The notes under the pieces: generated by a model | What the model saw: only the letters and a program-made list of their open reading frames with translations | What the model was told of the DNA's origin: nothing | Databases searched by the model: none | In this document: piece by piece, positions 5,755 to 51,607 of the stretch | Numbering within the stretch: the stretch's first letter is position 1 | Layout of the letters: each line of letters begins with the position of its first letter | NCBI GenBank assembly: GCA_051010635.1 | Contig: JBPCVJ010000039.1 | Coordinates: 2,489 to 66,488, forward strand | DNA length: 64,000 nt | Reading direction: 5' to 3' | Source: Alphaproteobacteria bacterium | GTDB lineage: Bacteria; Pseudomonadota; Alphaproteobacteria; JASGCL01 | Program-made: the position numbers and the translations under genes

Positions 5755-8700
5755 TTAGATAAAATTAATATTATCTTGCCCGCCCACTAGGTCAAGGAAT
5801 TGTTGGTAAGTTAGGGCGGCAGTGCCATTTTGGTCAAGGCTAAGACCATTAGGGGTTGCGAATTCGCCATTCAAGTTCGGGCTTTGCCAATCAAATGCAT
5901 TAAAATTATCTTTATCGCCATAGATATAAATTCGGTCATTTCCTGTGCCATCGCCATCAATATCAAACATAATATGACCCGTGCCATCATTGGCATTATC
6001 TTGAATAAAATACCAATGGTACTGGTTTTGATTGCCATCAGGGTCGGTGAAGACAATAAAACTATCATCTAAATTATCAGCGGTTAAGTTATGATAATTT
6101 TTGCCATCATCATTGGTATAATGTGCGTTGGAAAAATAAATATCTGCCGATAGAATAACATTGCCATTGTATATGGCATCATCAACATAAATAGGGGTGT
6201 TGGGTGGTGGGTGGTTTGGGGATTCATTAATATCAACCAAAGACAAAATGAAAGTTTGGGTTATGGATAGGGCGCCATCGCCCACCCCCGCACCACCATC
6301 TGTGCCGATAGCATTGATGGTGATGGTAAAATAATTGCCAGCATGGCCATTATATGTGCCCTCATAATCAAGGCTTGATATAAGGGTCAAAACACCTTCG
6401 GTATCTATCATGAATAGATTGCTATCAGTGCCGCCTATGCTGTAGCTAATATCTGCACCATCGGTATCGACTGCGGTGAAGGTGGTGATGGTTAAATCAG
6501 ATGCATTATTTTCATTGACCGTCGTCCCAGCACTTTGTGTGCCAGACCATTCGGTCATTTCATCGTTAACATTGTTGATGCTTAAAACAAATATTTGGGT
6601 TATCGCCGATGTGCCATCGCCCACCATAATGCCATCGGCTGTGCCGATGGCATTAATTGTTATGGTAAAATAATTGCCATCATAACCGCCATAGATGCCT
6701 TCATAATCGATCGTAGATTTTAAGCTCAACCCCCCCATATTATCAATCGAAAATAAATTGCTATTGATACCGCTGAGAGAATAGGCAATGCCAGCTCCAT
6801 CGGCATCGGTTGCTATAAAGGTGGCAAAGGCTACATTGACAACATCGTTTTCATCTATCACCGCCCCCGCATTTTGTGTGCCAGACCATTCGGTTGGTTG
6901 GTCATTAAGGTTTGTTTCATTGGTGCCATCATTGTTGATGGTTAAAATAAAAGTTTGGCTAAGAATCAAAGCACCATCACCCACCCCATCTCCACCGCTG
7001 GTGCCAATCGCATGGATGGTGATGGTAAAATAATTACCATAATGACCATTATAAGTTTTTTCATAATCAATGCTGGATTTTAGGGTTAAAACCCCCGCTG
7101 TATCTATAGCAAATAAATTTCTATCATCGCCTGCTATACTATAGCTAATATCCGCCCCATCGGCATCGGTTGCCATAAAGGTGGCAAGGCTTACATCAAC
7201 CGCATTATTTTCATTGATGGCGGCACCTGTGCTTGGTGTGCTAAGCCATGCGGTTGGTTGGTCATTCACATCAACTTCGTCTTCGTCGCCAACACTTAAA
7301 ATAAAAATTTGGGTTATTGCCAATGCACCACCGCCTATGCCTTGCCCACCGCCTGTGCCAAGTGCGTGGATAGTGATGGTAAAATAATCCCCCCGATGCT
7401 CATGATAGGTTTCTTCATAATCAATGCTGGATTTCAAAATTAAAACACCATTGTCATCAATAGTAAATAAATCACTATCATCGCCTGTGATACTATAGCT
7501 AATTCCTACCCCATCGGCATCGGTTGCCGTAAAGGTGGTTAATACCAATTCAGAAACATTATTTTCATCGATCATGACTCCTGAACTCGGCGTGCCAGAC
7601 CAAATTGCCATTTGATCATTAACATTGGGATCATCCACCCCATCATCAATCACAGTTAAAATAAAAGTTTGGGTTATCGCCAAAGCACCATCGCCTCTTC
7701 CAAAGCCATCGCTTGTGCCAAATGCACGAATGGTTATCGTAAAATAATTCGCAACATGGTTATTATAGGTTGTCTCATAATCAATGCTGGATTTTAAAAT
7801 TAAAACACCATTTTCATCAATGCTAAATAAATTACTATCAGTCCCAATGATACTATAATCAATGTCGGTCCCATCGGCATCTATAGCGGTAAAGGTGGCT
7901 AACATCAATTCAGAGGCATTATCTTCATTAATCATGCCGCCCGTGCTTGGTGTGCCAGACCAAATTGCCATTTGATCATTGCTGTTAGGTTCGTCTTGAT
8001 TATTAAGCGTTAAAATAAATATTTGGCTGATAGATAATGCACCATCGCCCACCCCCGCACCACCATCTGTGCCTATCGCATTGATGGTGATGGTAAAATA
8101 ATTGCCATTATGACGATTATATATGCCCTCATAATCAAGGCTGGATAGGAGAGTCAAAGCACCTTGCGAATCTATGGTGAATAGGTTGGTATCGGTGCCT
8201 GTGATGCTATAATTGATATTGTTGCCATCAAAGTCAATAGCACTAAAAATAGTCAATATCAGACCAGAAGCATTATTTTCATCAATCATTTCACCCGCAC
8301 TTGGTGTATCCGCCCATCTGGTAGGTTGGTCGTTAAGATTCAGTTCGTTAATCCCATCATTGCCAATGCTTACAACAAAATTTTGGGTTAAAACAATTCC
8401 ACCCGCACCCACACCATCACCGCCTGCCGTGCCGATCGCATTGATAGTAATGGTATATTGATGACTAACCGTTTCATAATCAAGCAATGATATAAATGTT
8501 AGAATACCAGTATCGCTATCAATAGAAAAATAAACACTATCTGTTCCAGTAATTGAATAACTGATACCTGCACCATCATCATCAATAGCGGTAAAAGTGG
8601 TTATCACCACATCGGTTGTATCTTCTTCAATAATAAAAATATCCGAAGTTTGATTATCCGACCAAATGGTTGGTTGGTCATTAACATCGGGGTCATTCAC

Positions 8701-10086
8701 ACCATCATTATCAATACTCAAAACAAAATTTTGGGTTATCACGCCGCCGCCATCATTTTCACGAGCCGATATGATAATACTATAGATAGGGTTAGTGCGT
8801 TCTTCAAAATCAAGCGACGATATGAATGTTAAAATCCCATCATGATTAATATAAAAATAATCGGCATCAGCACCGCTTAAACTATATTGAATAAACCTTG
8901 AACTGCCACCACCATCTACATCAACTGCCAAAAATGTGCCAATCAATATGTTGGCGGTATCGGTTTCGCTAATAGACAAATCGCTTGAGGTTGTCATCCA
9001 AGCCGTATCATCATCAATGTTATAGGCTTGCAAAACAAAAATGGTTGAAATAGATTCATTGCTATCGCTGGAATGGGCATACACCACAACCGAAAAAATA
9101 CCATCGCCATTGGTAGAAGCCTCATAATCAAAACTACCTATTAATCGCAATTCACCAGTATCCTCATCGATTGAAATGGTCGCAAGGGCCGCCTCATCAC
9201 CAGTCAAACTATAACTTATTTCACTATTATCGCCATCACGCGCTGAAAAAAATGCCAAATGATAATCATGCAAACCATCCATTTCATTGGCTGATAAAAA
9301 ATTCCTTTGCGTGCCGTGCCACAGCAGTGGATATTCATCAACATTGGATATTGATAAAACAAATAATGTACTTATCACCAGAGTGCCATCGCCTGATGCC
9401 GCCCCGCCATCTCTACCACGGGCATTGACCAAAACGGTGTAATTGCCCCAACGCTCCCTATCGGTAATTCCTAAACTTAACCAATAATTACTAAGATATT
9501 CATAATCAGGCTGATGTTTTAACCTTATCACGCCATCGCCACCTATCATCATAAGGGCAGTGCCAATACTATCTGGTGTATTGCTTAACCAATAATCTAT
9601 GCCTGGTCCATCAGGGTCTGTGGCAGAAAAAGTCGCAACCCCGCTACCGATATTTGCCGTTTCATCTATGGTTGCCGATGATGGATTACCGACAAACCAT
9701 CTAGCTACCCTATCATTCAAGCCATCTTCATGCAGATTGACAACCGACAAAACAAACAAACTGGTTAGGGCGGGCTCATCAATTACCCTATCGCTTGGTG
9801 CAGCATTAACCACAACGGTATAATTATTCCAGCGTTCTTGATTATAATTGCCAACATCACGCCAATATTGGATTAGATATTCATAATCAACAAAATGCCT
9901 TAATCTAATAACACCATCTAGCCCGATGGTCATAAGCACCAAACCAGCATTATCATCACTGGTGAGCCAATAGCTTATATCGTTGGATTCAGTATCGCTG
10001 GCAACAAAACTTGCTACAGGTTCGCCAACGCCTTTGTTTTCTTCCACATAGCCATCTTCTGGATTGACATCCCAAGTCGTTGTCAT
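5755..10086 (-). CDS. Giant secreted adhesin-like protein with at least 8 tandem cadherin-like repeats
   Basis: 1443 aa. A roughly 110-aa unit repeats: NDQPT.WSGT.S.G..I.ENN.S.L.L.TFTA.DADG..ISYSI.G.DSNLF.ID..GVLTLKSSIDYE..YN.H.GNYFTITI.AIGT.GG.GVGDGAL. Each unit shows cadherin hallmarks (DxDxNDQP linkers, ATDADG calcium sites, LDYE). There is no N-terminal signal peptide. The C-terminus carries Gly/Asp-rich DIDGDGTGNDRIYIYGD, which resembles RTX/T1SS-type calcium-binding and secretion regions. Confidence 0.85.
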   Translation of the reverse strand: MTTTWDVNPEDGYVEENKGVGEPVASFVASDTESNDISYWLTSDDNAGLVLMTIGLDGVIRLRHFVDYEYLIQYWRDVGNYNQERWNNYTVVVNAAPSDRVIDEPALTSLFVLSVVNLHEDGLNDRVARWFVGNPSSATIDETANIGSGVATFSATDPDGPGIDYWLSNTPDSIGTALMMIGGDGVIRLKHQPDYEYLSNYWLSLGITDRERWGNYTVLVNARGRDGGAASGDGTLVISTLFVLSISNVDEYPLLWHGTQRNFLSANEMDGLHDYHLAFFSARDGDNSEISYSLTGDEAALATISIDEDTGELRLIGSFDYEASTNGDGIFSVVVYAHSSDSNESISTIFVLQAYNIDDDTAWMTTSSDLSISETDTANILIGTFLAVDVDGGGSSRFIQYSLSGADADYFYINHDGILTFISSLDFEERTNPIYSIIISARENDGGGVITQNFVLSIDNDGVNDPDVNDQPTIWSDNQTSDIFIIEEDTTDVVITTFTAIDDDGAGISYSITGTDSVYFSIDSDTGILTFISLLDYETVSHQYTITINAIGTAGGDGVGAGGIVLTQNFVVSIGNDGINELNLNDQPTRWADTPSAGEMIDENNASGLILTIFSAIDFDGNNINYSITGTDTNLFTIDSQGALTLLSSLDYEGIYNRHNGNYFTITINAIGTDGGAGVGDGALSISQIFILTLNNQDEPNSNDQMAIWSGTPSTGGMINEDNASELMLATFTAIDADGTDIDYSIIGTDSNLFSIDENGVLILKSSIDYETTYNNHVANYFTITIRAFGTSDGFGRGDGALAITQTFILTVIDDGVDDPNVNDQMAIWSGTPSSGVMIDENNVSELVLTTFTATDADGVGISYSITGDDSDLFTIDDNGVLILKSSIDYEETYHEHRGDYFTITIHALGTGGGQGIGGGALAITQIFILSVGDEDEVDVNDQPTAWLSTPSTGAAINENNAVDVSLATFMATDADGADISYSIAGDDRNLFAIDTAGVLTLKSSIDYEKTYNGHYGNYFTITIHAIGTSGGDGVGDGALILSQTFILTINNDGTNETNLNDQPTEWSGTQNAGAVIDENDVVNVAFATFIATDADGAGIAYSLSGINSNLFSIDNMGGLSLKSTIDYEGIYGGYDGNYFTITINAIGTADGIMVGDGTSAITQIFVLSINNVNDEMTEWSGTQSAGTTVNENNASDLTITTFTAVDTDGADISYSIGGTDSNLFMIDTEGVLTLISSLDYEGTYNGHAGNYFTITINAIGTDGGAGVGDGALSITQTFILSLVDINESPNHPPPNTPIYVDDAIYNGNVILSADIYFSNAHYTNDDGKNYHNLTADNLDDSFIVFTDPDGNQNQYHWYFIQDNANDGTGHIMFDIDGDGTGNDRIYIYGDKDNFNAFDWQSPNLNGEFATPNGLSLDQNGTAALTYQQFLDLVGGQDNINFI
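6330..8680. repeat. Intragenic tandem DNA repeats of about 330 bp. These are the cadherin-like repeat units of the giant gene.
   Basis: Periodic near-identical segments are visible in the ORF translation and in recurring DNA strings such as ccatcggcatcggttgc and gataatagaaat-like blocks. The boundaries are approximate. Confidence 0.6.
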
Positions 10087-23988: not shown

Positions 23989-24804
23989 ATGACAAAAAAA
24001 CTTTTAATTTTATTGATGGTGCCATTTTTTTTATGGGGATGCGAGACCTTGCCATTTCGCTGGGGTGCTGACCTAGATGTGCAAGATATTGTTAGTAAAG
24101 ATAATAAAATTACCAAATTGCAAAAAGCCAAACCAGACAAACAAGTGGCTGAAGGAAGGTTATATAAAACAAAGCTGGTTAGAAAAAAAATTATTTACAA
24201 AGTGCGCAAGGGTGATTCGCTTTATGCACTGGCACGAAAACATAAAATAAAAATATCCACCCTTGCCAGAGACAATAAATTAAAATCAAACGCAAAATTA
24301 AAAATTGGTCAGCGGCTGGTTATCAATAAAAAAGTTCTTAAAAAAGTGCCTATCAAAACTACTAAAAACAATGATGGTATCACCCCGCCAAAAAATCAAA
24401 CCAAAGTTACCAAAACCGCCATCAGCAATTCACGCCAATTTTTATGGCCATTGAATCCTGCCAATTTGACACAAAAATTTGGCAGAGGTATTAGCCAAGA
24501 TGGCATTATTTTATCAGGAACGCTGGGGCAAAATGTATTAGCGACCAATAATGGCTCGGTGATTTATGTTGGCACTGATATTAAACCACTGGGGCTATTG
24601 GTGCTTATCAAACACAATAATGGTTTTGTATCAACCTATGGGCATTTACAAGGTGCTTTGGTTAAAAAAGGCGATACGGTAAAAACTGGGAAAGCCATTG
24701 CCACTTTAGGGCAATCGGGCAAGGCACAACAACCACAATTATATTTTGAAATTAGAAAAAATAATAAACCAACCAATCCCTTAAAATTTTTGGGTGATAG
24801 ATAA
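23989..24804 (+). CDS. LysM-domain M23 metallopeptidase lipoprotein (NlpD/LppB-like murein hydrolase activator)
   Basis: Lipobox LWGC after the signal peptide. LysM region: YKVRKGDSLYALARKHKIKISTLARDN. M23 region: GHLQGALVKKGDTVKTGKAIATLGQSG ... LYFEIRKNNKPTNP. Confidence 0.8.
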   Translation: MTKKLLILLMVPFFLWGCETLPFRWGADLDVQDIVSKDNKITKLQKAKPDKQVAEGRLYKTKLVRKKIIYKVRKGDSLYALARKHKIKISTLARDNKLKSNAKLKIGQRLVINKKVLKKVPIKTTKNNDGITPPKNQTKVTKTAISNSRQFLWPLNPANLTQKFGRGISQDGIILSGTLGQNVLATNNGSVIYVGTDIKPLGLLVLIKHNNGFVSTYGHLQGALVKKGDTVKTGKAIATLGQSGKAQQPQLYFEIRKNNKPTNPLKFLGDR

Positions 24805-25588: not shown

Positions 25589-26032
25589 ATGACCATATTA
25601 CATCTTTTGGGTTTATTTGCAGTTTTTTTACTGCTGGCGATGATAGTGCGAAAATTTCTGCCCATTATAATTTTATTATTAACCACCATCTTAATTGGTA
25701 TGGGGCTTTCTTTCTTTTTTGGTTTTATGCCCGATTACAGCAATGGGTTTCGTGCGGGGCTGGTGCAAAAATATTCTGTCAAAGGCATTTTTTTTAAATC
25801 AAATGAATTTATTTTGGTATTACCGATCGAGGGTTTGGTTATGACCGAAGGCAAAATTACCGTGATTGAAATTTCTTGTTTGCCAAAAAAAACCCCTATC
25901 GCTTGTAGGGAGTTAAAAAAAGCCGTGGCAACTCGGGAAAAAATATTGGTTGAATATAATCAATGGTTGAGAAAACCCATCACCCAAGATAGCATTTATA
26001 CGGTAAAATCAGCTACCCCTGTGGATTTATAA
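25589..26032 (+). CDS. Hypothetical small membrane protein
   Basis: Two or three N-terminal hydrophobic helices followed by a soluble C-terminal region. No recognisable motif. Confidence 0.35.
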   Translation: MTILHLLGLFAVFLLLAMIVRKFLPIIILLLTTILIGMGLSFFFGFMPDYSNGFRAGLVQKYSVKGIFFKSNEFILVLPIEGLVMTEGKITVIEISCLPKKTPIACRELKKAVATREKILVEYNQWLRKPITQDSIYTVKSATPVDL

Positions 26033-26084
26033 AAATTTTTTTCTTTAGAAAAAATAAAAATGTTTTTTCTATGACACAAATGAT

Positions 26085-28526: not shown

Positions 28527-29933
28527 TTAAATATGAATCGCCCGACCAAAAGCTGCCATAGCCGATTCATGTATCATTTCTGATAAGGTGGGGTGGGGGA
28601 AAACACTATGTATCAATTCGGCTTCGGTGGTTTCTAGGTTGCGTGATAAGGTAAAACTATGAATCAATTCGGTTACCTCGGCACCTATCAAATGCGCACC
28701 CAATAACTCACCAGTTTTGGCATCAAATATAATTTTCACCATACCCATGTCTTCTCCAAGCGCGATAGCCTTACCATTACCCTGAAAAGGAAAACGACCA
28801 ATTTTTGTCTTGATATTTTTTTCCTTCGCCTTGTCCTCAGTCAAACCAACCGATGCAATTTGTGGATGACAATAGGTGCAACTTGGAATATTATCTTTAT
28901 TAAGGGGGTGGAGTGGCTTCACCCCAGCAATATGCTCAACCGCTATCACCCCTTCATGTTCAGCCTTATGAGCCAGCCATGGCGGCGCACCCATATCGCC
29001 TATGGCATAGATACCAGCCTCAGCGGTTTCAGCCCATTGATTGGTAGCCACAAAACCCTTTTCAAGTTTGATGGCAGTTTTTTCTAAACCAAGGTTTTCG
29101 CTATTAGCCGTTATACCCACTGCCGATAACAAAACATCAGCGGTCAAACTTTCAATCCCCTTGTTGGTTTTAATATCCAATTTCACCCCATCGGCAGTTT
29201 TGCTTAATTTTTCAGCCTTGCTATTGGTTTTAAAATCAATCCCTTGGGTTGCCAATATTTTTTCAGCCATGGTTGATATTTCTGTATCCTCTTGCGGTAA
29301 GATACGCGGCAATAATTCCACCACCGTTACCTTAACACCAATTTCATTATAAAAACTGGCAAATTCTATACCAATAGCACCGCTACCTAATATTATCATC
29401 GTTTTGGGTTGCTTTTTTGGCTTTAAGGCATGTTTATAATGCCACACCAGCACGCCATCGGTTTCAAACCCCGCTATTTCCTTTGGGCGGGCACCAGTGG
29501 CAAGAATGATATTTTTGGCGGTTATGGTTTTTTCACTTTTATCAGCCATCGCCACCACCACCGACCGCTTGCCTACCGCCCCGCCTGAAAGCCGTGCCAT
29601 GCCGTTAAAAACTTGAATATTATTTTTTTTCATTAAATATTCAACCCCTTGCGACAATTTATCGGCAATCCCACGAGACCTTGCCACCATACCATTCAGG
29701 TCAGATGCTACATCCCCCGCCACAACACCAAATGTTTTGGCGTGTTTGGCAAGACGCAAAACCTCTGCCGATCTTAACAATGCTTTGGTAGGGATACAGC
29801 CCCAATTAAGGCATATTCCACCCAAATGATGTGCCTCGACCAATGCAACCTTTAATTTTAATTGTGCGGCACGAATGGCCGCCACATAGCCACCAGGACC
29901 ACCACCAATAATTATTAAATCAAAATCTGTCAT
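28527..29933 (-). CDS. lpdA: Dihydrolipoyl dehydrogenase (E3)
   Basis: IIIGGGPGGYVAAIRAAQL (FAD-binding), the redox disulfide GICLNWGCIPTK, and the C-terminal HPTLSE interface motif. Confidence 0.95.
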   Translation of the reverse strand: MTDFDLIIIGGGPGGYVAAIRAAQLKLKVALVEAHHLGGICLNWGCIPTKALLRSAEVLRLAKHAKTFGVVAGDVASDLNGMVARSRGIADKLSQGVEYLMKKNNIQVFNGMARLSGGAVGKRSVVVAMADKSEKTITAKNIILATGARPKEIAGFETDGVLVWHYKHALKPKKQPKTMIILGSGAIGIEFASFYNEIGVKVTVVELLPRILPQEDTEISTMAEKILATQGIDFKTNSKAEKLSKTADGVKLDIKTNKGIESLTADVLLSAVGITANSENLGLEKTAIKLEKGFVATNQWAETAEAGIYAIGDMGAPPWLAHKAEHEGVIAVEHIAGVKPLHPLNKDNIPSCTYCHPQIASVGLTEDKAKEKNIKTKIGRFPFQGNGKAIALGEDMGMVKIIFDAKTGELLGAHLIGAEVTELIHSFTLSRNLETTEAELIHSVFPHPTLSEMIHESAMAAFGRAIHI

Positions 29934-29950: not shown

Positions 29951-30859
29951 TTATGAAAAAAACATCAATGCAGGGTCTTCGACATAATGTTTAAAATATT
30001 TTAATAATTCTGCACCGATAGCACCATCAACCGCCCGATGGTCGCAAGATAATGTTGCCGACATAATGGGTGCGACCTCAACCCTGCCATCTTTGACGAT
30101 AGGTGTATCAATGCCCGCACCCACCGCCAAAATTGCCCCCTGCGGCGGATTAATCACCGCATCAAATTGTTTAATGCCAAACATACCCAAATTAGATAAA
30201 GATATCGTGCCGCCTTGATATTCCTCGGGTTTTAATTGCCCCTGTTTGGCTTTGCTAGCCAAAGATTTCATTTCAGTTGAAATGACCTGTAATGATTTTT
30301 TTTCGGCTTGCCTTACGATCGGGGTAATCAAACCACCATCAATTGCCACTGCCACCGCTATATCAACCGATTGAAATAGTTTGACACCATCTTTTGTAAA
30401 ACTGGCATTGGCATTCGGCACCTTGCGACAAGCCATCGCCAAAGCCTTAATAATAATATCATTGATACTAATTTTGCTACCCTTGCCCGCCGCATCGGTA
30501 GGATTTAATTTTTGCCATTTTTCCCGTAAAGTCGTGATATGGCTAAGATCGCAATCAACCGTCAAATAAAAATGTGGTATTGTGGTTTTAGACAGCGTCA
30601 AGCGTTCGGCAATCACACGGCGCATAGCGGTGATAGGCGTTATAGTAAAAGGTGGTTCGAAATTATTATCTAATTTCATCGCGGTTATAGGGGCAGAATC
30701 TTGCGCCACATCGCCCGTGGTCGCCATTTTATCAATATCGGCTTTAACAATTCGCCCATGCGGTCCTGAACCCATTATTCCAGCAATGTTGATACCCCGT
30801 TCCATCGCCAATCGCTTAGCAAGGGGGCTAATAAAAATGCGTTCTTGATGATTCATCAT
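29951..30859 (-). CDS. pdhC: Dihydrolipoamide acetyltransferase E2 core lacking any lipoyl domain (PSBD plus catalytic domain only)
   Basis: It starts directly with the peripheral-subunit-binding domain (SPLAKRLAMERGINIAGIMGSGPHGRIVKADI). The catalytic domain has SCDHRAVDGA. No lipoyl (biotinyl/lipoyl attachment) domain is found upstream in any frame. Only about 150 bp lie between it and the next gene. Confidence 0.85.
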   Translation of the reverse strand: MMNHQERIFISPLAKRLAMERGINIAGIMGSGPHGRIVKADIDKMATTGDVAQDSAPITAMKLDNNFEPPFTITPITAMRRVIAERLTLSKTTIPHFYLTVDCDLSHITTLREKWQKLNPTDAAGKGSKISINDIIIKALAMACRKVPNANASFTKDGVKLFQSVDIAVAVAIDGGLITPIVRQAEKKSLQVISTEMKSLASKAKQGQLKPEEYQGGTISLSNLGMFGIKQFDAVINPPQGAILAVGAGIDTPIVKDGRVEVAPIMSATLSCDHRAVDGAIGAELLKYFKHYVEDPALMFFS

Positions 30860-31012
30860 TTATTTTTGCTTGTTAATTATAAAATAACTTTTATAATAGG
30901 AAAGATAAAAAAGCAACCAAAAAACCTCTCTATCATCATATCATTTTTAAGCTTGAAAATTGATAGCAAAAATAATAGGTTAGATAAAGATACAAAAATA
31001 AAACAGGAATAG

Positions 31013-31348
31013 ATGATGGCTAAATTTTTTAAACTCCTTATCGCCTTGATTATGGAATTGGTTAATTTTGTTTTTATAGGTGCATGGTTAAGTTTTAAGC
31101 TTTTGCTTATAACAATTTTTTTCTTTGCAAAAAAAAAGGGCAATGCACCTGTATTGAATACCCAAGGTCAAAAAGCTTTGGACGAGGATTTCAAAAACCT
31201 GACCAAGAGTTTGCGTAAATCTTTTGTTGCATTATTTAACATCTCGGCATTTACGGGTGAAAAAGCCAAACAAAAATATCAAGAAATCAAACAACGGCAA
31301 CCAAGCAAAAAAAAGCCGAAAAAGAAAAAATCAAAAAAGAAAAAATAA
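31013..31348 (+). CDS. Small membrane protein with a poly-lysine C-terminal tail (paralog 1)
   Basis: 111 aa. N-terminal hydrophobic hairpin (FFKLLIALIMELVNFVFIGAWLSFKLLLITIFFF). C-terminus SKKKPKKKKSKKKK. It is paralogous to the next ORF and is transcribed antisense to the pdh operon. Confidence 0.5.
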   Translation: MMAKFFKLLIALIMELVNFVFIGAWLSFKLLLITIFFFAKKKGNAPVLNTQGQKALDEDFKNLTKSLRKSFVALFNISAFTGEKAKQKYQEIKQRQPSKKKPKKKKSKKKK

Positions 31349-31361
31349 ATAAGGAATCGCC

Positions 31362-31691
31362 ATGAATAATTCTTTTAAACTGATATTTGACCTATTATTG
31401 AGTCTGGTTGTTTTTATGTTGCGTGCCGCATGGTTGGGGTTTAAATATCTATTGATAACAATTTTTTTCTTTGCCAAAAAAGATGGCAATGACCCCGCTT
31501 TGGGCGTTGCCGGACAGCAGGCCTTAAAAAAAGATTTTAAGAATATCGGCAAGGGGTTAAAAGTATCTTTCAAAAAAATGGGGGGTATTTTTAAGGACCT
31601 GGTTAATGACCCCAATTCTACCAGCACCAAAGTTAAATCAAAATTAAAAAAAATAAAAAGCAAAACCAAAATTAAAACACCTGAAAAATAA
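31362..31691 (+). CDS. Small membrane protein with a lysine-rich C-terminal tail (paralog 2)
   Basis: 109 aa. It shares with the upstream paralog the conserved core AWLxFKxLLITIFFFAKKxGNxPxL...GQxALxxDFKN. AAGGA ribosome-binding site 8 nt upstream. Confidence 0.5.
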   Translation: MNNSFKLIFDLLLSLVVFMLRAAWLGFKYLLITIFFFAKKDGNDPALGVAGQQALKKDFKNIGKGLKVSFKKMGGIFKDLVNDPNSTSTKVKSKLKKIKSKTKIKTPEK

Positions 31692-31696
31692 TTTTA

Positions 31697-33127
31697 TTAT
31701 TTGCCTACCAGCGAACGCACCGCATTAATAATATCGGGTATTTGTGGCAAGGCTAGTTTTTCTAAATTCTGGGCATAGGGTAGGGGGACATCTTTACCGC
31801 ATACTCTAAAGGGGGCGGCATCAAGCCAATCAAAACATTGTTCATTAATAACCGCCATAATTTCAGCACCAACCCCTGATTGTGCCCAACCCTCCTCAAC
31901 TGTAATAACACGATTGGTTTTTTTTACCGATGAAACTATCGCTGGTATATCAAGTGGTCGTAAAGTTCTTAAATCTAAAACCTCAACCTCAATCCCCGAT
32001 TTTGCCAATTCTTCGGCCGCTTGTAAAGATTTTCCTACCATAATTGAAAAAGTAATAATGGTCGCATCGCTCCCAATACGCTGTAATTTGGCTTTGCCTA
32101 TCGGCACTTGCCAATCTTCGCTATCAGGCACTTGAAAAGATTGCCCATAAAGTATTTCATTTTCTAAAAATATCACTGGATTATTATCCAAAATGGCTGA
32201 TTTTAATAAACCCTTGGCATCGGCCGCAGTGTAAGGGGCAACTACTTTTAACCCTGGCACATGGCTATACCAACTGGCAAAACATTGTGAATGTTGTGCC
32301 GCCACCCGTGCCGCGGCGCCATTGGGACCACGAAATACTATCGGACAATTTATTTGCCCCCCCGACATATAAAGGGTTTTGGCGGCACTATTAATAATTT
32401 GATCCATCGCTTGCATTGAAAAATTCATTGTCATAAATTCTACTATTGGACGCAATCCATGAAAGGCGGCCCCGATACCAATACCAGCAAAACCCATTTC
32501 GGTTATGGGGGTATCAATAATGCGTTTGTTGCCGAATTGGTCAAGCAAGCCTTGCGTTACTTTATAAGCCCCTTGGTATTCACCAACCTCTTCACCCAAT
32601 AAAAATACCTTATCATCGCGCTGCATTTCTTCTTTCATAGCATCACGCAAAGCCTCCCGCACTGTTTGCATTGTCGTTTTGCCTGTCCATTCGTTTTCAG
32701 CAACAGGCATTGCTTCAGTATTTATATGTGGTGCAACGGGTGGATGTTGTTGCAAAGGTTCTTCTACTAGTGGTGGTGCCATATCCGCACCATTGCTTGC
32801 CATATCATTTGCCGTATTTTTCGCCATATCGGTTGGTGCATGATGTGATGTATTTTGGCTTTTTGCCATCACATCTTCCAATGTTTCATCATCTTCTAAA
32901 ATAACCGCTATAGGGCTACCTACCTGTATTTTTTGGCTACCACCCGCAATGATAATTTTTGCCAATGTGCCACTATCAACCGATTCAACCTCCATGGTTG
33001 CTTTATCAGTTTCTATTTCGGCAATAATTTGTCCGGGTGTAACTTTATCACCCTCCTTGACCAACCAACGGGCAAGATTACCCTCGGTCATGGTGGGGGA
33101 AAGGGCGGGCATTAAAATTTGTGGCAT
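31697..33127 (-). CDS. pdhB: Pyruvate dehydrogenase E1 beta subunit with an N-terminal lipoyl domain
   Basis: The N-terminus [29 protein letters not shown]...[12 protein letters not shown] is a lipoyl domain with its lipoyl-lysine. An Ala/Pro-rich linker follows, then the transketolase-like E1-beta region ([26 protein letters not shown]). This fusion is known from alphaproteobacterial pdhB. Confidence 0.92.
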
Positions 33128-33136
33128 ATTAATTTT

Positions 33137-34147
33137 TTATTGCAAAATATCGGTCCATAGGTCGGTTTCATTGGGTTCAGGGGAGTCTTCAGCAATTTTA
33201 ACCGCTTCAAGTATAATGGTTTTAATTTTTTGTTCGGTATCTTTTTCTGTTTTTTCATCAAGCTGTTCATTATCCTTTAATATTTTTTTTATATGTTCTA
33301 TCGGATCATGTTTTGCGCGTATTTCATCAACCTCCTCACGGGAACGATATTTCGCTGGGTCAGACATTGAATGACCACGATAGCGATAGGTCTGTGCCTC
33401 AATAATAAATGGTCCATTGCCAGATTCTACATATTGAATTGCCTCCTTACCCAAATTGCGCATCGCCTCAACATCCATACCATCAACTTGGCTACCCTTA
33501 ATACCATAGGCAATGCCCCTATCACATAATCTGCTGTCATTGGCTGATGACCGCTTTGCCGATGTTCCCATCGCATAACGATTATTTTCAATCACAAATA
33601 TCGCTGGCAATTTCCATAAAGCTGCCATGTTAAAGGTTTCATAAACCTGCCCCTGATTCAACGCGCCCTCGCCCATATAGATAAAAGACAAACCCAATTT
33701 TTCTTTTTTGTCGCCAATGCCATTTTCATAACGATATTGTAATGCCAAAGCAAGCCCAGCACCAAGTGGCACTTGTGCCCCAACAATACCATGCCCGCCA
33801 TAAAAATTCTTTTTACGGGAAAACATATGCATCGAACCACCCTTGCCCCGACTATATCCCGCACTGCGACCTGTCAATTCCGCCATAACCCCCGAAGGTT
33901 TCATACCTGATGCCAACATATGCCCATGGTCACGATAACTGGTTATCACACAATCATTTTTTTTCATCACCGTCTGTAAGCCCACCACCACCGCTTCTTG
34001 CCCTATGTAAAGATGACAAAACCCCCCTATCAAACCCAACCCATAAAGTTGCCCCGCCCGTTCTTCAAAACGGCGAATAAGCAACATTTGATAAAAATCT
34101 TGCTTGAGTTGTTCAAAGCGTTGGTCATTAGCTATATTTTTTGTCAT
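33137..34147 (-). CDS. pdhA: Pyruvate dehydrogenase E1 alpha subunit
   Basis: Thiamine-diphosphate-dependent E1-alpha pattern: YRDHGHMLASG and GxGAQVPLGAG. 336 aa. Confidence 0.92.
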   Translation of the reverse strand: MTKNIANDQRFEQLKQDFYQMLLIRRFEERAGQLYGLGLIGGFCHLYIGQEAVVVGLQTVMKKNDCVITSYRDHGHMLASGMKPSGVMAELTGRSAGYSRGKGGSMHMFSRKKNFYGGHGIVGAQVPLGAGLALALQYRYENGIGDKKEKLGLSFIYMGEGALNQGQVYETFNMAALWKLPAIFVIENNRYAMGTSAKRSSANDSRLCDRGIAYGIKGSQVDGMDVEAMRNLGKEAIQYVESGNGPFIIEAQTYRYRGHSMSDPAKYRSREEVDEIRAKHDPIEHIKKILKDNEQLDEKTEKDTEQKIKTIILEAVKIAEDSPEPNETDLWTDILQ

Positions 34148-51220: not shown

Positions 51221-51607
51221 ATGGAAAAAGAGTTAAAAATCGCTATATGGAACTTTATATATTATCTAGAAGATAATATGTATAGTGACCAAAAAAAGAG
51301 TTATTATAAATTGTATATGATGCGTTTTTGTGATGAACCTATGGATGAATATTGTTCTTTAGATCATATGCGAGATAAAATCAAAAAATTTATTCTTGAA
51401 GCAGAACAGGGTCAAATTTTAAAATTATTGCAATTTTTATTTAAAAATATTGCTTTAATATATGCTGATTCTAGAAGCAAACTTGCTTCAGTAGACGAAT
51501 TCACAAAATATACAGAACAACAATTAAATGATATTTTAGAAGGACATAAATTTCCTAGTAGATTTGATTCAAAAGAAAACATATTTTTTGAATTAAAATT
51601 ACCCTGA
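51221..51607 (+). CDS. Hypothetical protein, second gene of the cassette, bracketed by the 29-bp repeats
   Basis: 128 aa. AAAAAATGG start region with GGATTAAAAAAATGG upstream. No recognisable motif. Confidence 0.4.
   Translation: MEKELKIAIWNFIYYLEDNMYSDQKKSYYKLYMMRFCDEPMDEYCSLDHMRDKIKKFILEAEQGQILKLLQFLFKNIALIYADSRSKLASVDEFTKYTEQQLNDILEGHKFPSRFDSKENIFFELKLP

Follow-up and report, generated by a model that had tools for sequence, protein, structure and literature searches.

A tandem pair of lineage-restricted genes for putative small membrane proteins, antisense within the pdh operon of an alphaproteobacterium

The locus and the evidence for coding genes

The window analysed here, a stretch of 64,000 nucleotides (nt) on the forward strand of contig JBPCVJ010000039.1 from Alphaproteobacteria bacterium GCA_051010635.1, carries a pyruvate dehydrogenase (PDH) operon and, between its pdhB and pdhC genes and antisense to them, a tandem pair of small open reading frames (ORFs) designated A and B. 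ORF A occupies positions 31016-31348 of the plus strand (31013-31348 with the first ATG) and codes for 110 amino acids (aa), or 111 aa when counted from 31013; ORF B occupies positions 31362-31691 of the same strand and codes for a 109-aa paralog of A. The products are listed at NCBI as the hypothetical proteins ACR2NY_06605 (A) and ACR2NY_06610 (B), and both ORFs are predicted as genes by Prodigal-type callers, on Logan contigs, and by NCBI PGAP. An initial annotation of this DNA had placed two plus-strand ORFs of 111 and 109 aa at these positions, antisense between pdhB and pdhC, in full agreement with the ORF listing. The locus of the window is that of the NCBI metagenome-assembled genome (MAG), and two Logan assemblies (SRR33949960 and SRR33949963) match it with an identity of at least 99.97%.

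The pair lies within a lineage-specific block of 837 base pairs (bp; 30860-31696) delimited by the start codon of pdhC and the stop codon of pdhB. The stop codons of ORF B and of the convergent pdhB are 5 nt apart. The surrounding operon, on the minus strand, comprises pdhA (33137-34147), pdhB (31697-33127), which codes for the E1 beta subunit with an N-terminal lipoyl domain and transketolase-like domains, pdhC (29951-30859), which codes for an E2 subunit with the E3-binding and catalytic domains only, and lpdA (28527-29933); dnaB and gltX complete the neighbourhood. A sigma-70-like promoter match, TTGTTA-16-TATAAT, is located on the plus strand at 30870-30897, 11 nt from the start codon of pdhC, which is read from the other strand, with 10 of 12 consensus positions matched, and is a candidate for the A-B transcript. 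Moreover, a Shine-Dalgarno-like (SD-like) AGGAA lies on the plus strand 5' of ORF A (31005-31009) and again 5' of ORF B (31352-31356), the latter as part of the duplicated unit.

The two products share 57% identity across their first 70 residues (40/70 identical, E = 9e-25), including the common AWLxFKxLLITIFFFAKK with its exact string LLITIFFFAKK; alignment of the C-terminal halves is poor, and the SKKKPKKKKSKKKK tail is confirmed. At the DNA level, a plus-strand core, ATAACAATTTTTTTCTTTGC followed by an A run (31109-31137), encodes ITIFFFAKK; in the second copy (31455-31474) the 20-nt core is identical to the first, and the A run extends the motif to 31481.

A and B show the marks of genuine protein-coding genes, namely purifying selection in frame, gene-like codon usage and translation signals. 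Specifically, when the 82 nucleotide differences observed between them are placed at random (20,000 simulations), 23.8 +/- 2.7 identical residues are expected, with a maximum of 34, against the 40 observed, so that the amino-acid identity exceeds the random-substitution expectation by about 6 standard deviations, and only 7.5% of the simulated copies are free of stop codons. The differences are distributed as 27, 16 and 39 over codon positions 1, 2 and 3 (chi-square p = 0.008), and the annotated plus-strand frame has the lowest ratio of nonsynonymous to synonymous differences (pN/pS 0.38) of all six frames, besides being the sole frame that is stop-free in both copies of the aligned block; the synonymous proportion (pS) of about 0.77 between A and B is saturated. 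A codon-usage log-odds score trained on the long ORFs of the window gives 0.19 bits per codon for A and 0.22 for B and is positive in the annotated frame only, the long genes scoring 0.23-0.52 and overlapping, presumably spurious ORFs of 90-160 aa scoring 0.04 or less. Likewise, the guanine-cytosine (GC) content at third codon positions (GC3) is 0.33 in A and 0.38 in B, compared with 0.36 in host genes.

The AGGAA motifs are placed 6-7 nt 5' of the ATG in both ORFs, as measured for A to the second ATG (31016), and SD-like motifs of any kind precede about a quarter of the genes in the window (13 of 49). The second ATG, which yields the 110-aa product, is the likely start of A, since it leaves a spacer of 7 nt after the AGGA motif and lines up with the first codon of B. 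Minus-strand coding (ORFs 30877-31143 and 31331-31669) was rejected: within the aligned block these frames are interrupted by stops in one copy or both, their pN/pS values are 0.55-0.66 and their codon scores are negative. The pair is thus very probably protein-coding and kept by selection since the duplication, and the outcome that the initial annotation had named as fatal to its proposal, a chance duplication of an AT-rich segment devoid of purifying selection, is at odds with the pN/pS ratio, the simulations and the codon usage.

ORF A contains two poly-A runs, an A9 run within the DNA core (31129-31137) and an A8 run (31307-31314), and the gain or loss of one A in the A9 run would truncate the product to 46 or 67 residues. 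The slippage-prone poly-A coding ascribed to the tail is real as far as the runs themselves are concerned, but it is not specific to ORF A, as the window holds 82 A/T homopolymer runs of at least 8 bases (8-9 bases), many of them in genes. Phase variation at poly-A was therefore discarded as a special feature of the pair: runs of this length are ubiquitous in the genome, and the poly-A run lengths agree among the three assemblies. The combination of A/T runs and scarce SD motifs is typical of a reduced AT-rich genome.

History of the pdhB-pdhC interval

In five related loci, pdhB is followed by a spacer of 40-75 nt and then by a pdhC of 296-307 aa devoid of a lipoyl domain. The nearest relatives retrieved with the PdhC of the window have PdhC proteins that are 67-77% identical to it (BLASTP) and that all consist of the E3_binding and 2-oxoacid_dh domains only. 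In the relatives whose contig reaches far enough upstream (one contig measures 1.63 Mb), the gene order is dnaB, pdhA, pdhB with a lipoyl domain, the 40-75 nt spacer, the lipoyl-less pdhC, an optional DUF4760 gene and lpdA. The start residue of PdhC is the same across relatives (M..HQxRIFISPLAK; MMNHQERIFISPLAK in the window and MTSHQPRIFISPLAK in L084), and its identity to orthologs in global alignments, 79-81%, equals that of PdhA, PdhB and Lpd (79-82% over the subunits). A lipoyl-domain remnant of pdhC was sought in the block and rejected, as tblastn with the lipoyl domain matches pdhB only and the pdhC of this clade is ancestrally lipoyl-less. The relatives that lack the insertion share the short pdhC and its start residue, so pdhC was not cut by the insertion, and the short form is ancestral and functional in this clade and predates the block. 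The "truncated pdhC" of the initial annotation is accordingly to be read as the regular form of the gene in these genomes.

The comparison with related genomes shows the 837-bp block to be specific to the lineage of the window and, relative to them, an insertion. It is located exactly between the pdhB stop codon and the old spacer, and its GC content is 0.30, compared with 0.39 for the window. The recent insertion proposed earlier thus holds as an insertion, given the 40-75 nt spacer of the five related loci, but not as a recent one: the block is not demonstrably recent, because the synonymous sites of A and B are saturated and their GC3 and codon usage match those of the host. The block bears no inverted repeats of the insertion-sequence (IS) type, no target-site duplication and no flanking direct repeats beyond A-rich low complexity, and none of its other ORFs has a family match. 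An origin from an IS or from a miniature inverted-repeat transposable element was rejected for want of terminal repeats and target-site duplication, and an RNA element was rejected, as no Rfam match rises above noise and the 5' leader is unstructured (fold z-score 0.02). The region 5' of A (about 30880-31012) may be a decayed partial copy of the repeat tail, on an A-rich, low-complexity and unconvincing alignment.

A dispersed-repeat reading of the T7-CTTTGC-A(n) core was also dismissed, as only one similar site occurs in the window (26029-26054) and none in the relatives. This site is a T7-CTTTAG-A6 AT hairpin placed directly after the stop of the ORF at 25589-26032, and it matches the A/B core at 17/20 positions, with 0.03 such matches expected by chance.

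The interval is occupied in other lineages as well. Among 73 loci (L003-L082), in about 20 alphaproteobacterial lineages, the gap between pdhB and pdhC contains 180-1100 bp of unrelated small genes on the same strand as the operon, including an approximately 100-aa MAGPKEQPLPPDV... protein in Bradyrhizobium loci and several unclassified alphaproteobacterial MAGs, a deaminase-looking protein (by sequence) and proteins of about 85 aa in Rhodobacteraceae. As the gap hosts unrelated small genes in many lineages, it is an insertion hot spot.

These data bear on two alternative accounts of the block. In the scenario of the initial annotation, a recent foreign insertion cut off the 5' end of pdhC, which encoded the lipoyl domain; a pdhC without this domain and a block with a GC content below that of the window would fit such an event. 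This scenario is nevertheless contradicted by the close relatives, all of which lack both the lipoyl domain and the insertion and share the PdhC start residue, and it is further opposed by the absence of a lipoyl remnant in the block, by a PdhC rate equal to that of PdhA, PdhB and Lpd, and by the saturated synonymous sites and host-like GC3 of A and B, so that it can be regarded as highly improbable. The second account holds that A and B are non-functional and that their open frames arose when A-rich DNA of low complexity was duplicated in tandem within an AT-rich spacer. It draws on the orphan status of the pair, with homologs nowhere found, the 30% GC of the block, the paucity of stop codons in A-rich strands, the poorly aligning C-terminal halves and the resemblance of the region 5' of A to a decayed partial repeat of the tail. 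Still, it does not predict an identity about 6 standard deviations over random expectation when only 7.5% of simulated copies stay open, an excess of differences at the third codon position over the first and at the first over the second, the retention of the helical phase of polar residues while their positions shifted (see below), or SD motifs in both copies together with gene-like codon usage, and it is consequently quite unlikely.

Predicted architecture and possible function

An AlphaFold2 run with an alignment of the two sequences only, which reached a predicted local distance difference test score (pLDDT) of 67, models A as a hydrophobic helix (residues 2-40), a GNAP loop (41-48), an amphipathic helix (49-94) and a disordered polylysine tail, and B as helices 2-41, 49-82 and 89-105, with a loop after the first helix and a disordered Lys-rich tail. 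A conserved AKKxGNxP loop follows the first helix in both proteins, and no turn is predicted within the hydrophobic N-terminal part of either. The general layout described earlier, a hydrophobic N-terminus and a highly basic C-terminus, is borne out by composition; of the N-terminal hydrophobic hairpin, the shared hydrophobic N-terminus persists, but in place of the hairpin AlphaFold gives one continuous helix of about 40 residues.

The polar residues within the first 40 aa are K3, K6, E14, N17, K28 and K39 in A and N3, K6, D10, R21, K28 and K39 in B, and all of them fall inside 140-220 degrees of the helical wheel (100 degrees per residue), the chance of finding six residues in such an arc being about 0.003. 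Half of the polar positions differ between A and B, and the helical phase is kept. That the phase is coherent over 40 residues points to a single uninterrupted helix whose narrow polar stripe would be preserved by selection. A mixed-charge stripe in such a hydrophobic helix should be either buried in an interface or lining a channel, which would imply oligomerisation. Scored on the Hessa scale in 21-residue segments, membrane insertion of A is most favourable at an apparent free energy of -0.9 kcal/mol. A hydrophobic moment of 0.5-0.64 marks the second helix as strongly amphipathic. As for the tail, its composition is conserved between A and B and its sequence is not; A as a whole has a net charge of +21 and a Lys content of 22.5%, compared with 7-8% for typical proteins encoded in the window. 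The window also encodes the compositional opposite of A and B, a 1443-aa cadherin-repeat protein (5755-10086, minus strand) with 0.6% Lys and a net charge of -181.

Searches for relatives return only the pair itself. Pfam, NCBIfam, PHROGs and PADLOC give no meaningful match for A or B; a hidden Markov model built from A and B and run against 1.84 billion (1.84e9) representative proteins with no word filter retrieves A and B only, and ORF B, submitted to a word-indexed search of 5.8e9 clusters, retrieves only itself. Pattern matches found in 2.9 million viral contigs and in JGI metagenome contigs include none that encodes a relative, and the searches of phage DNA, of plasmids by tblastn and of PDB sequences are empty or noise, as is the Foldseek search of the PDB with the predicted model (two long helices, pLDDT 67), which yields helical noise only (E > 4). 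No further copies of A or B are present in the window or in the annotated proteome of the MAG, and the block has no DNA matches elsewhere. The lack of any recognisable family, which the initial annotation had noted, therefore extends to profile, sequence and structure searches, including 1.84 billion proteins, and the checks that it had proposed likewise show no copies elsewhere in the window or the annotated MAG proteome and a distribution among related genomes that is specific to the lineage of the window. By these searches, A and B are an orphan family restricted to this lineage. They resemble other orphan small-protein genes of bacteria in their restriction to one lineage, in their short and composition-biased products and in their location at an intergenic hot spot; they differ in lying opposite to the operon, in being duplicated and in showing measurable purifying selection between the copies.

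The explanation that best accommodates these observations, with a probability of about 0.55, takes A and B for small proteins of the inner membrane that assemble with themselves or with each other via the polar stripe and expose an amphipathic helix and a polybasic tail on the cytoplasmic surface. In this reading, A and B are real, co-transcribed and tandemly duplicated coding genes of a lineage-restricted family, and the 837-bp block entered, or grew within, the short pdhB-pdhC spacer after the split from the nearest sequenced relatives, in opposite orientation to the operon and leaving pdhB and the ancestrally lipoyl-less pdhC intact; the integrity of the operon is deduced from the identity of PdhC to its orthologs, equal to that of PdhA, PdhB and Lpd. 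The N-terminal helix would insert into the inner membrane and self-associate, or A would pair with B, through the polar stripe. According to the positive-inside rule, the loop, the amphipathic helix and the Lys tail would be placed on the cytoplasmic side, and the tail may bind anionic lipid head groups or another polyanion. Transcription of A-B probably starts at the promoter-like site 30870-30897, head-on to the read-through from pdhB to pdhC; the pair and the downstream pdh genes would thus interfere with each other's expression, a form of negative coupling. Of this account, the reality of the genes, the purifying selection, the orphan status and the history of the insertion are established by the data, and the membrane location, topology, oligomerisation, tail ligand and transcriptional interference are inferred.

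Several points weigh against this picture. The promoter indicated by the initial annotation is present as a match at 30870-30897, but it is not enriched over shuffles, the region containing 4 promoter-like sites against 5.1 +/- 2.1 in shuffled sequence. No terminator-like site was found in the block, so the A-B and the pdhB-to-pdhC read-through transcripts would presumably be fully antisense to each other. Furthermore, only two sequences exist, from one population, the three assemblies being at least 99.97% identical, and selection is hence inferred from one paralog comparison; within it, the identity of A and B at the amino-acid level could be raised by the 20-nt DNA core, which is fully conserved. 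The best segments of B have apparent insertion free energies of +1.5 to +2.1 kcal/mol, marginal for a stand-alone transmembrane helix, and the AlphaFold confidence is moderate, with its alignment of two sequences. An in-plane, tilted or non-membrane (hydrophobic coiled-coil) arrangement is also possible, as a 40-residue helix is longer than the bilayer needs. Apart from these points, the architecture of A and B is tidy but generic for a small membrane protein.

Known small membrane proteins offer partial likenesses. Phage holins combine one to three transmembrane segments with a charged tail at the C-terminus; A and B share with them the size class, the hydrophobic N-terminal part, the strongly basic hydrophilic C-terminus and, in the case of A, two adjacent Met codons. 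These codons, however, lack an intervening charged residue and so do not form a lambda-type dual start, and for the hydrophobic part one helix of 40 residues is predicted. Membership in a holin family was rejected, as the best PHROGs matches are to unrelated families (E = 0.005-0.15) with no holin among them and Pfam gives no match. Type I toxins are typically shorter than 60 aa, and TisB is a charge-zipper helix; A and B resemble TisB and Hok in having a hydrophobic helix with a charged line on one face and in that a cis-antisense transcript could cover the gene, but they carry an extra amphipathic helix and a polylysine tail and show no homology. At 109-111 aa, against a criterion of less than about 60 aa, they were not assigned to this class. 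The order of elements, that is, transmembrane helix, hinge, amphipathic helix and charged tail, is that of TatA/TatE (PF02416), and there is a loose motif likeness between FFFAKKxG...DFKN in A/B and LLFGTKKLG...GFKK. In contrast, the hydrophobic helix of A and B is about twice as long, their tail is purely basic and no tatB/tatC context exists; the family was rejected with no Pfam match at E <= 1 and a probability of 0.5% in hhalign against a TatA/TatE/TatAd/TatAy alignment.

These comparisons set the terms for the other functional proposals. Small pore formers such as TisB and holins use a narrow charged stripe in a hydrophobic helix, and A and B could similarly be holin-like or toxin-like pore formers whose oligomers, held by the charged stripe, depolarise or permeabilise the cell, in a remnant lysis, abortive-infection or addiction role that could be silenced by antisense read-through from the pdh operon. 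The size of about 110 aa, the hydrophobic N-terminus with a highly basic C-terminus, the mixed-charge stripe and a convergent arrangement that would give a full-length antisense RNA all suit this proposal. It is nonetheless rather unlikely: there is no PHROGs holin, Pfam or PADLOC match and no adjacent endolysin, spanin or other phage gene, no relatives occur among 2.9 million viral contigs or in the collections of phages and plasmids, type I toxins are about half as large as A and B, and two diverged copies under purifying selection with host-like codon usage do not look like a decaying cassette. No lysis cassette or prophage lies next to A and B, and the earlier remark that the lack of a nearby endolysin leaves a phage-lysis role unsupported proves accurate, as the nearest peptidoglycan hydrolase, a LysM-M23 peptidase gene (23989-24804), is about 6 kb away behind unrelated genes. 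Neither a dedicated antisense RNA gene nor a structured leader was seen for A and B (leader fold z-score and Rfam result as above). Alternatively, the pair may serve as a membrane tether in which an N-terminal anchor holds an amphipathic helix and a Lys tail that bind DNA, RNA, ribosomes or polyphosphate with no membrane damage. The extremely basic tails, the predicted disorder of the C-terminus and the retention of tail composition but not sequence, typical of electrostatic binders, speak for this function, which is still unlikely in view of the absence of homology to any nucleic-acid-binding family and of any context clue, and of a tail that could equally bind anionic lipids. A more far-reaching proposal, and a very unlikely one, is that a young family was born in place by expansion and tandem duplication of the AT-rich spacer and has since been moulded by selection into a hetero-oligomeric membrane-permeabilising bundle of helices, inversely gated by pdh transcription through head-on interference and antisense RNA; if this were true, the locus would be a metabolic-state-coupled membrane switch or an addiction module.

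If expressed, A and B would add a small-protein family absent from 1.84 billion representative proteins. Their design is unusually clean, with a predicted hydrophobic helix of 40 residues that bears one charged stripe and is followed by an amphipathic helix and a polylysine tail, and it would provide a compact model for membrane helix-helix assembly and for the function of polybasic tails in bacteria. Moreover, the head-on placement in an essential operon is a natural test case for transcriptional interference and for the origin and retention of orphan genes.

The lipoyl-less E2 and other features of the clade and the window

Correcting the reading of pdhC as truncated exposes a clade-wide PDH complex with a lipoyl domain on E1 beta only and none on E2, which is more surprising biology than the A/B pair. 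Among 73 alphaproteobacterial loci retrieved via PdhB, 71 have an E2 lipoyl domain between pdhB and the E3-binding domain of pdhC, mostly directly after pdhB. The other two, L022 (6001-8225) and L053 (5974-8353), belong to alphaproteobacteria unrelated to the clade of the window and have a lipoyl-less pdhC directly after pdhB. The remaining loci of this type are those of the window (29951-30859 and 31697-33127, minus strand) and of L084 (3569-5891), L085 (3554-5903), L087 (856-3271), L088 (1177-2100) and L089 (457-1347). An N-terminal lipoyl domain is present on PdhB in every locus with a complete pdhB, and its ETDKATME motif was checked in the window, L084, L085, L087, L022 and L053; this suggests that the lipoyl domain of E1 beta may serve as the swinging arm. 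No paper on a natural lipoyl-less PdhC paired with a lipoyl-bearing PdhB was found in the literature searched. The nearest known precedent is OdhA of corynebacteria, which uses the lipoyl domains carried by AceF.

Genes for small membrane proteins recur in the pdh cluster of this clade. A DUF4760 gene is located between pdhC and lpdA in L084 (6011-6535), L085 (6094-6441), L086 (5419-5691) and L089 (1467-1913) and is absent from the window, L087 and L088. As predicted for A and B, its product (PF15956) is small and has a transmembrane helix at the N-terminus, and its gene likewise belongs to the pdh cluster of this clade. The short strings AWLxF[KR] and F[KR]DLVND are common to this product and A or B; the gene differs in position and strand. 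A derivation of A and B from DUF4760 was rejected, as there is no Pfam match, the hhalign probability against the DUF4760 proteins of the clade is 2% and the tblastn matches are not significant.

Three related genomes have a conserved mini-ORF of 15-17 codons in the interval from pdhC to the DUF4760 gene, at about 5955-6008 in L084, 5970-6017 in L085 and 1411-1464 in L089. The encoded sequences are M(T/I)MNKYFISGDKESPN(S/G) or MKKYLISGDKESPNG, each ending at a stop codon, and the product looks like a leader peptide. L086 (GCA_030054115.1) is a MAG labelled 'Hydrotalea sp.' (Bacteroidota) that carries an alphaproteobacterial dnaB-pdhABC-lpdA locus with a PdhC 76% identical to that of the window, and its label is probably a binning or labelling error.

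Elsewhere in the window, a 128-aa ORF on the plus strand (51221-51607) has a sub-threshold match to the AbiJ N-terminal domain 4 (E = 1e-5). The low-GC patches at 50-52 kb and 55-56 kb, with a GC content of 0.25-0.35 in the region of this AbiJ-like ORF, may correspond to a small defence or mobile island.

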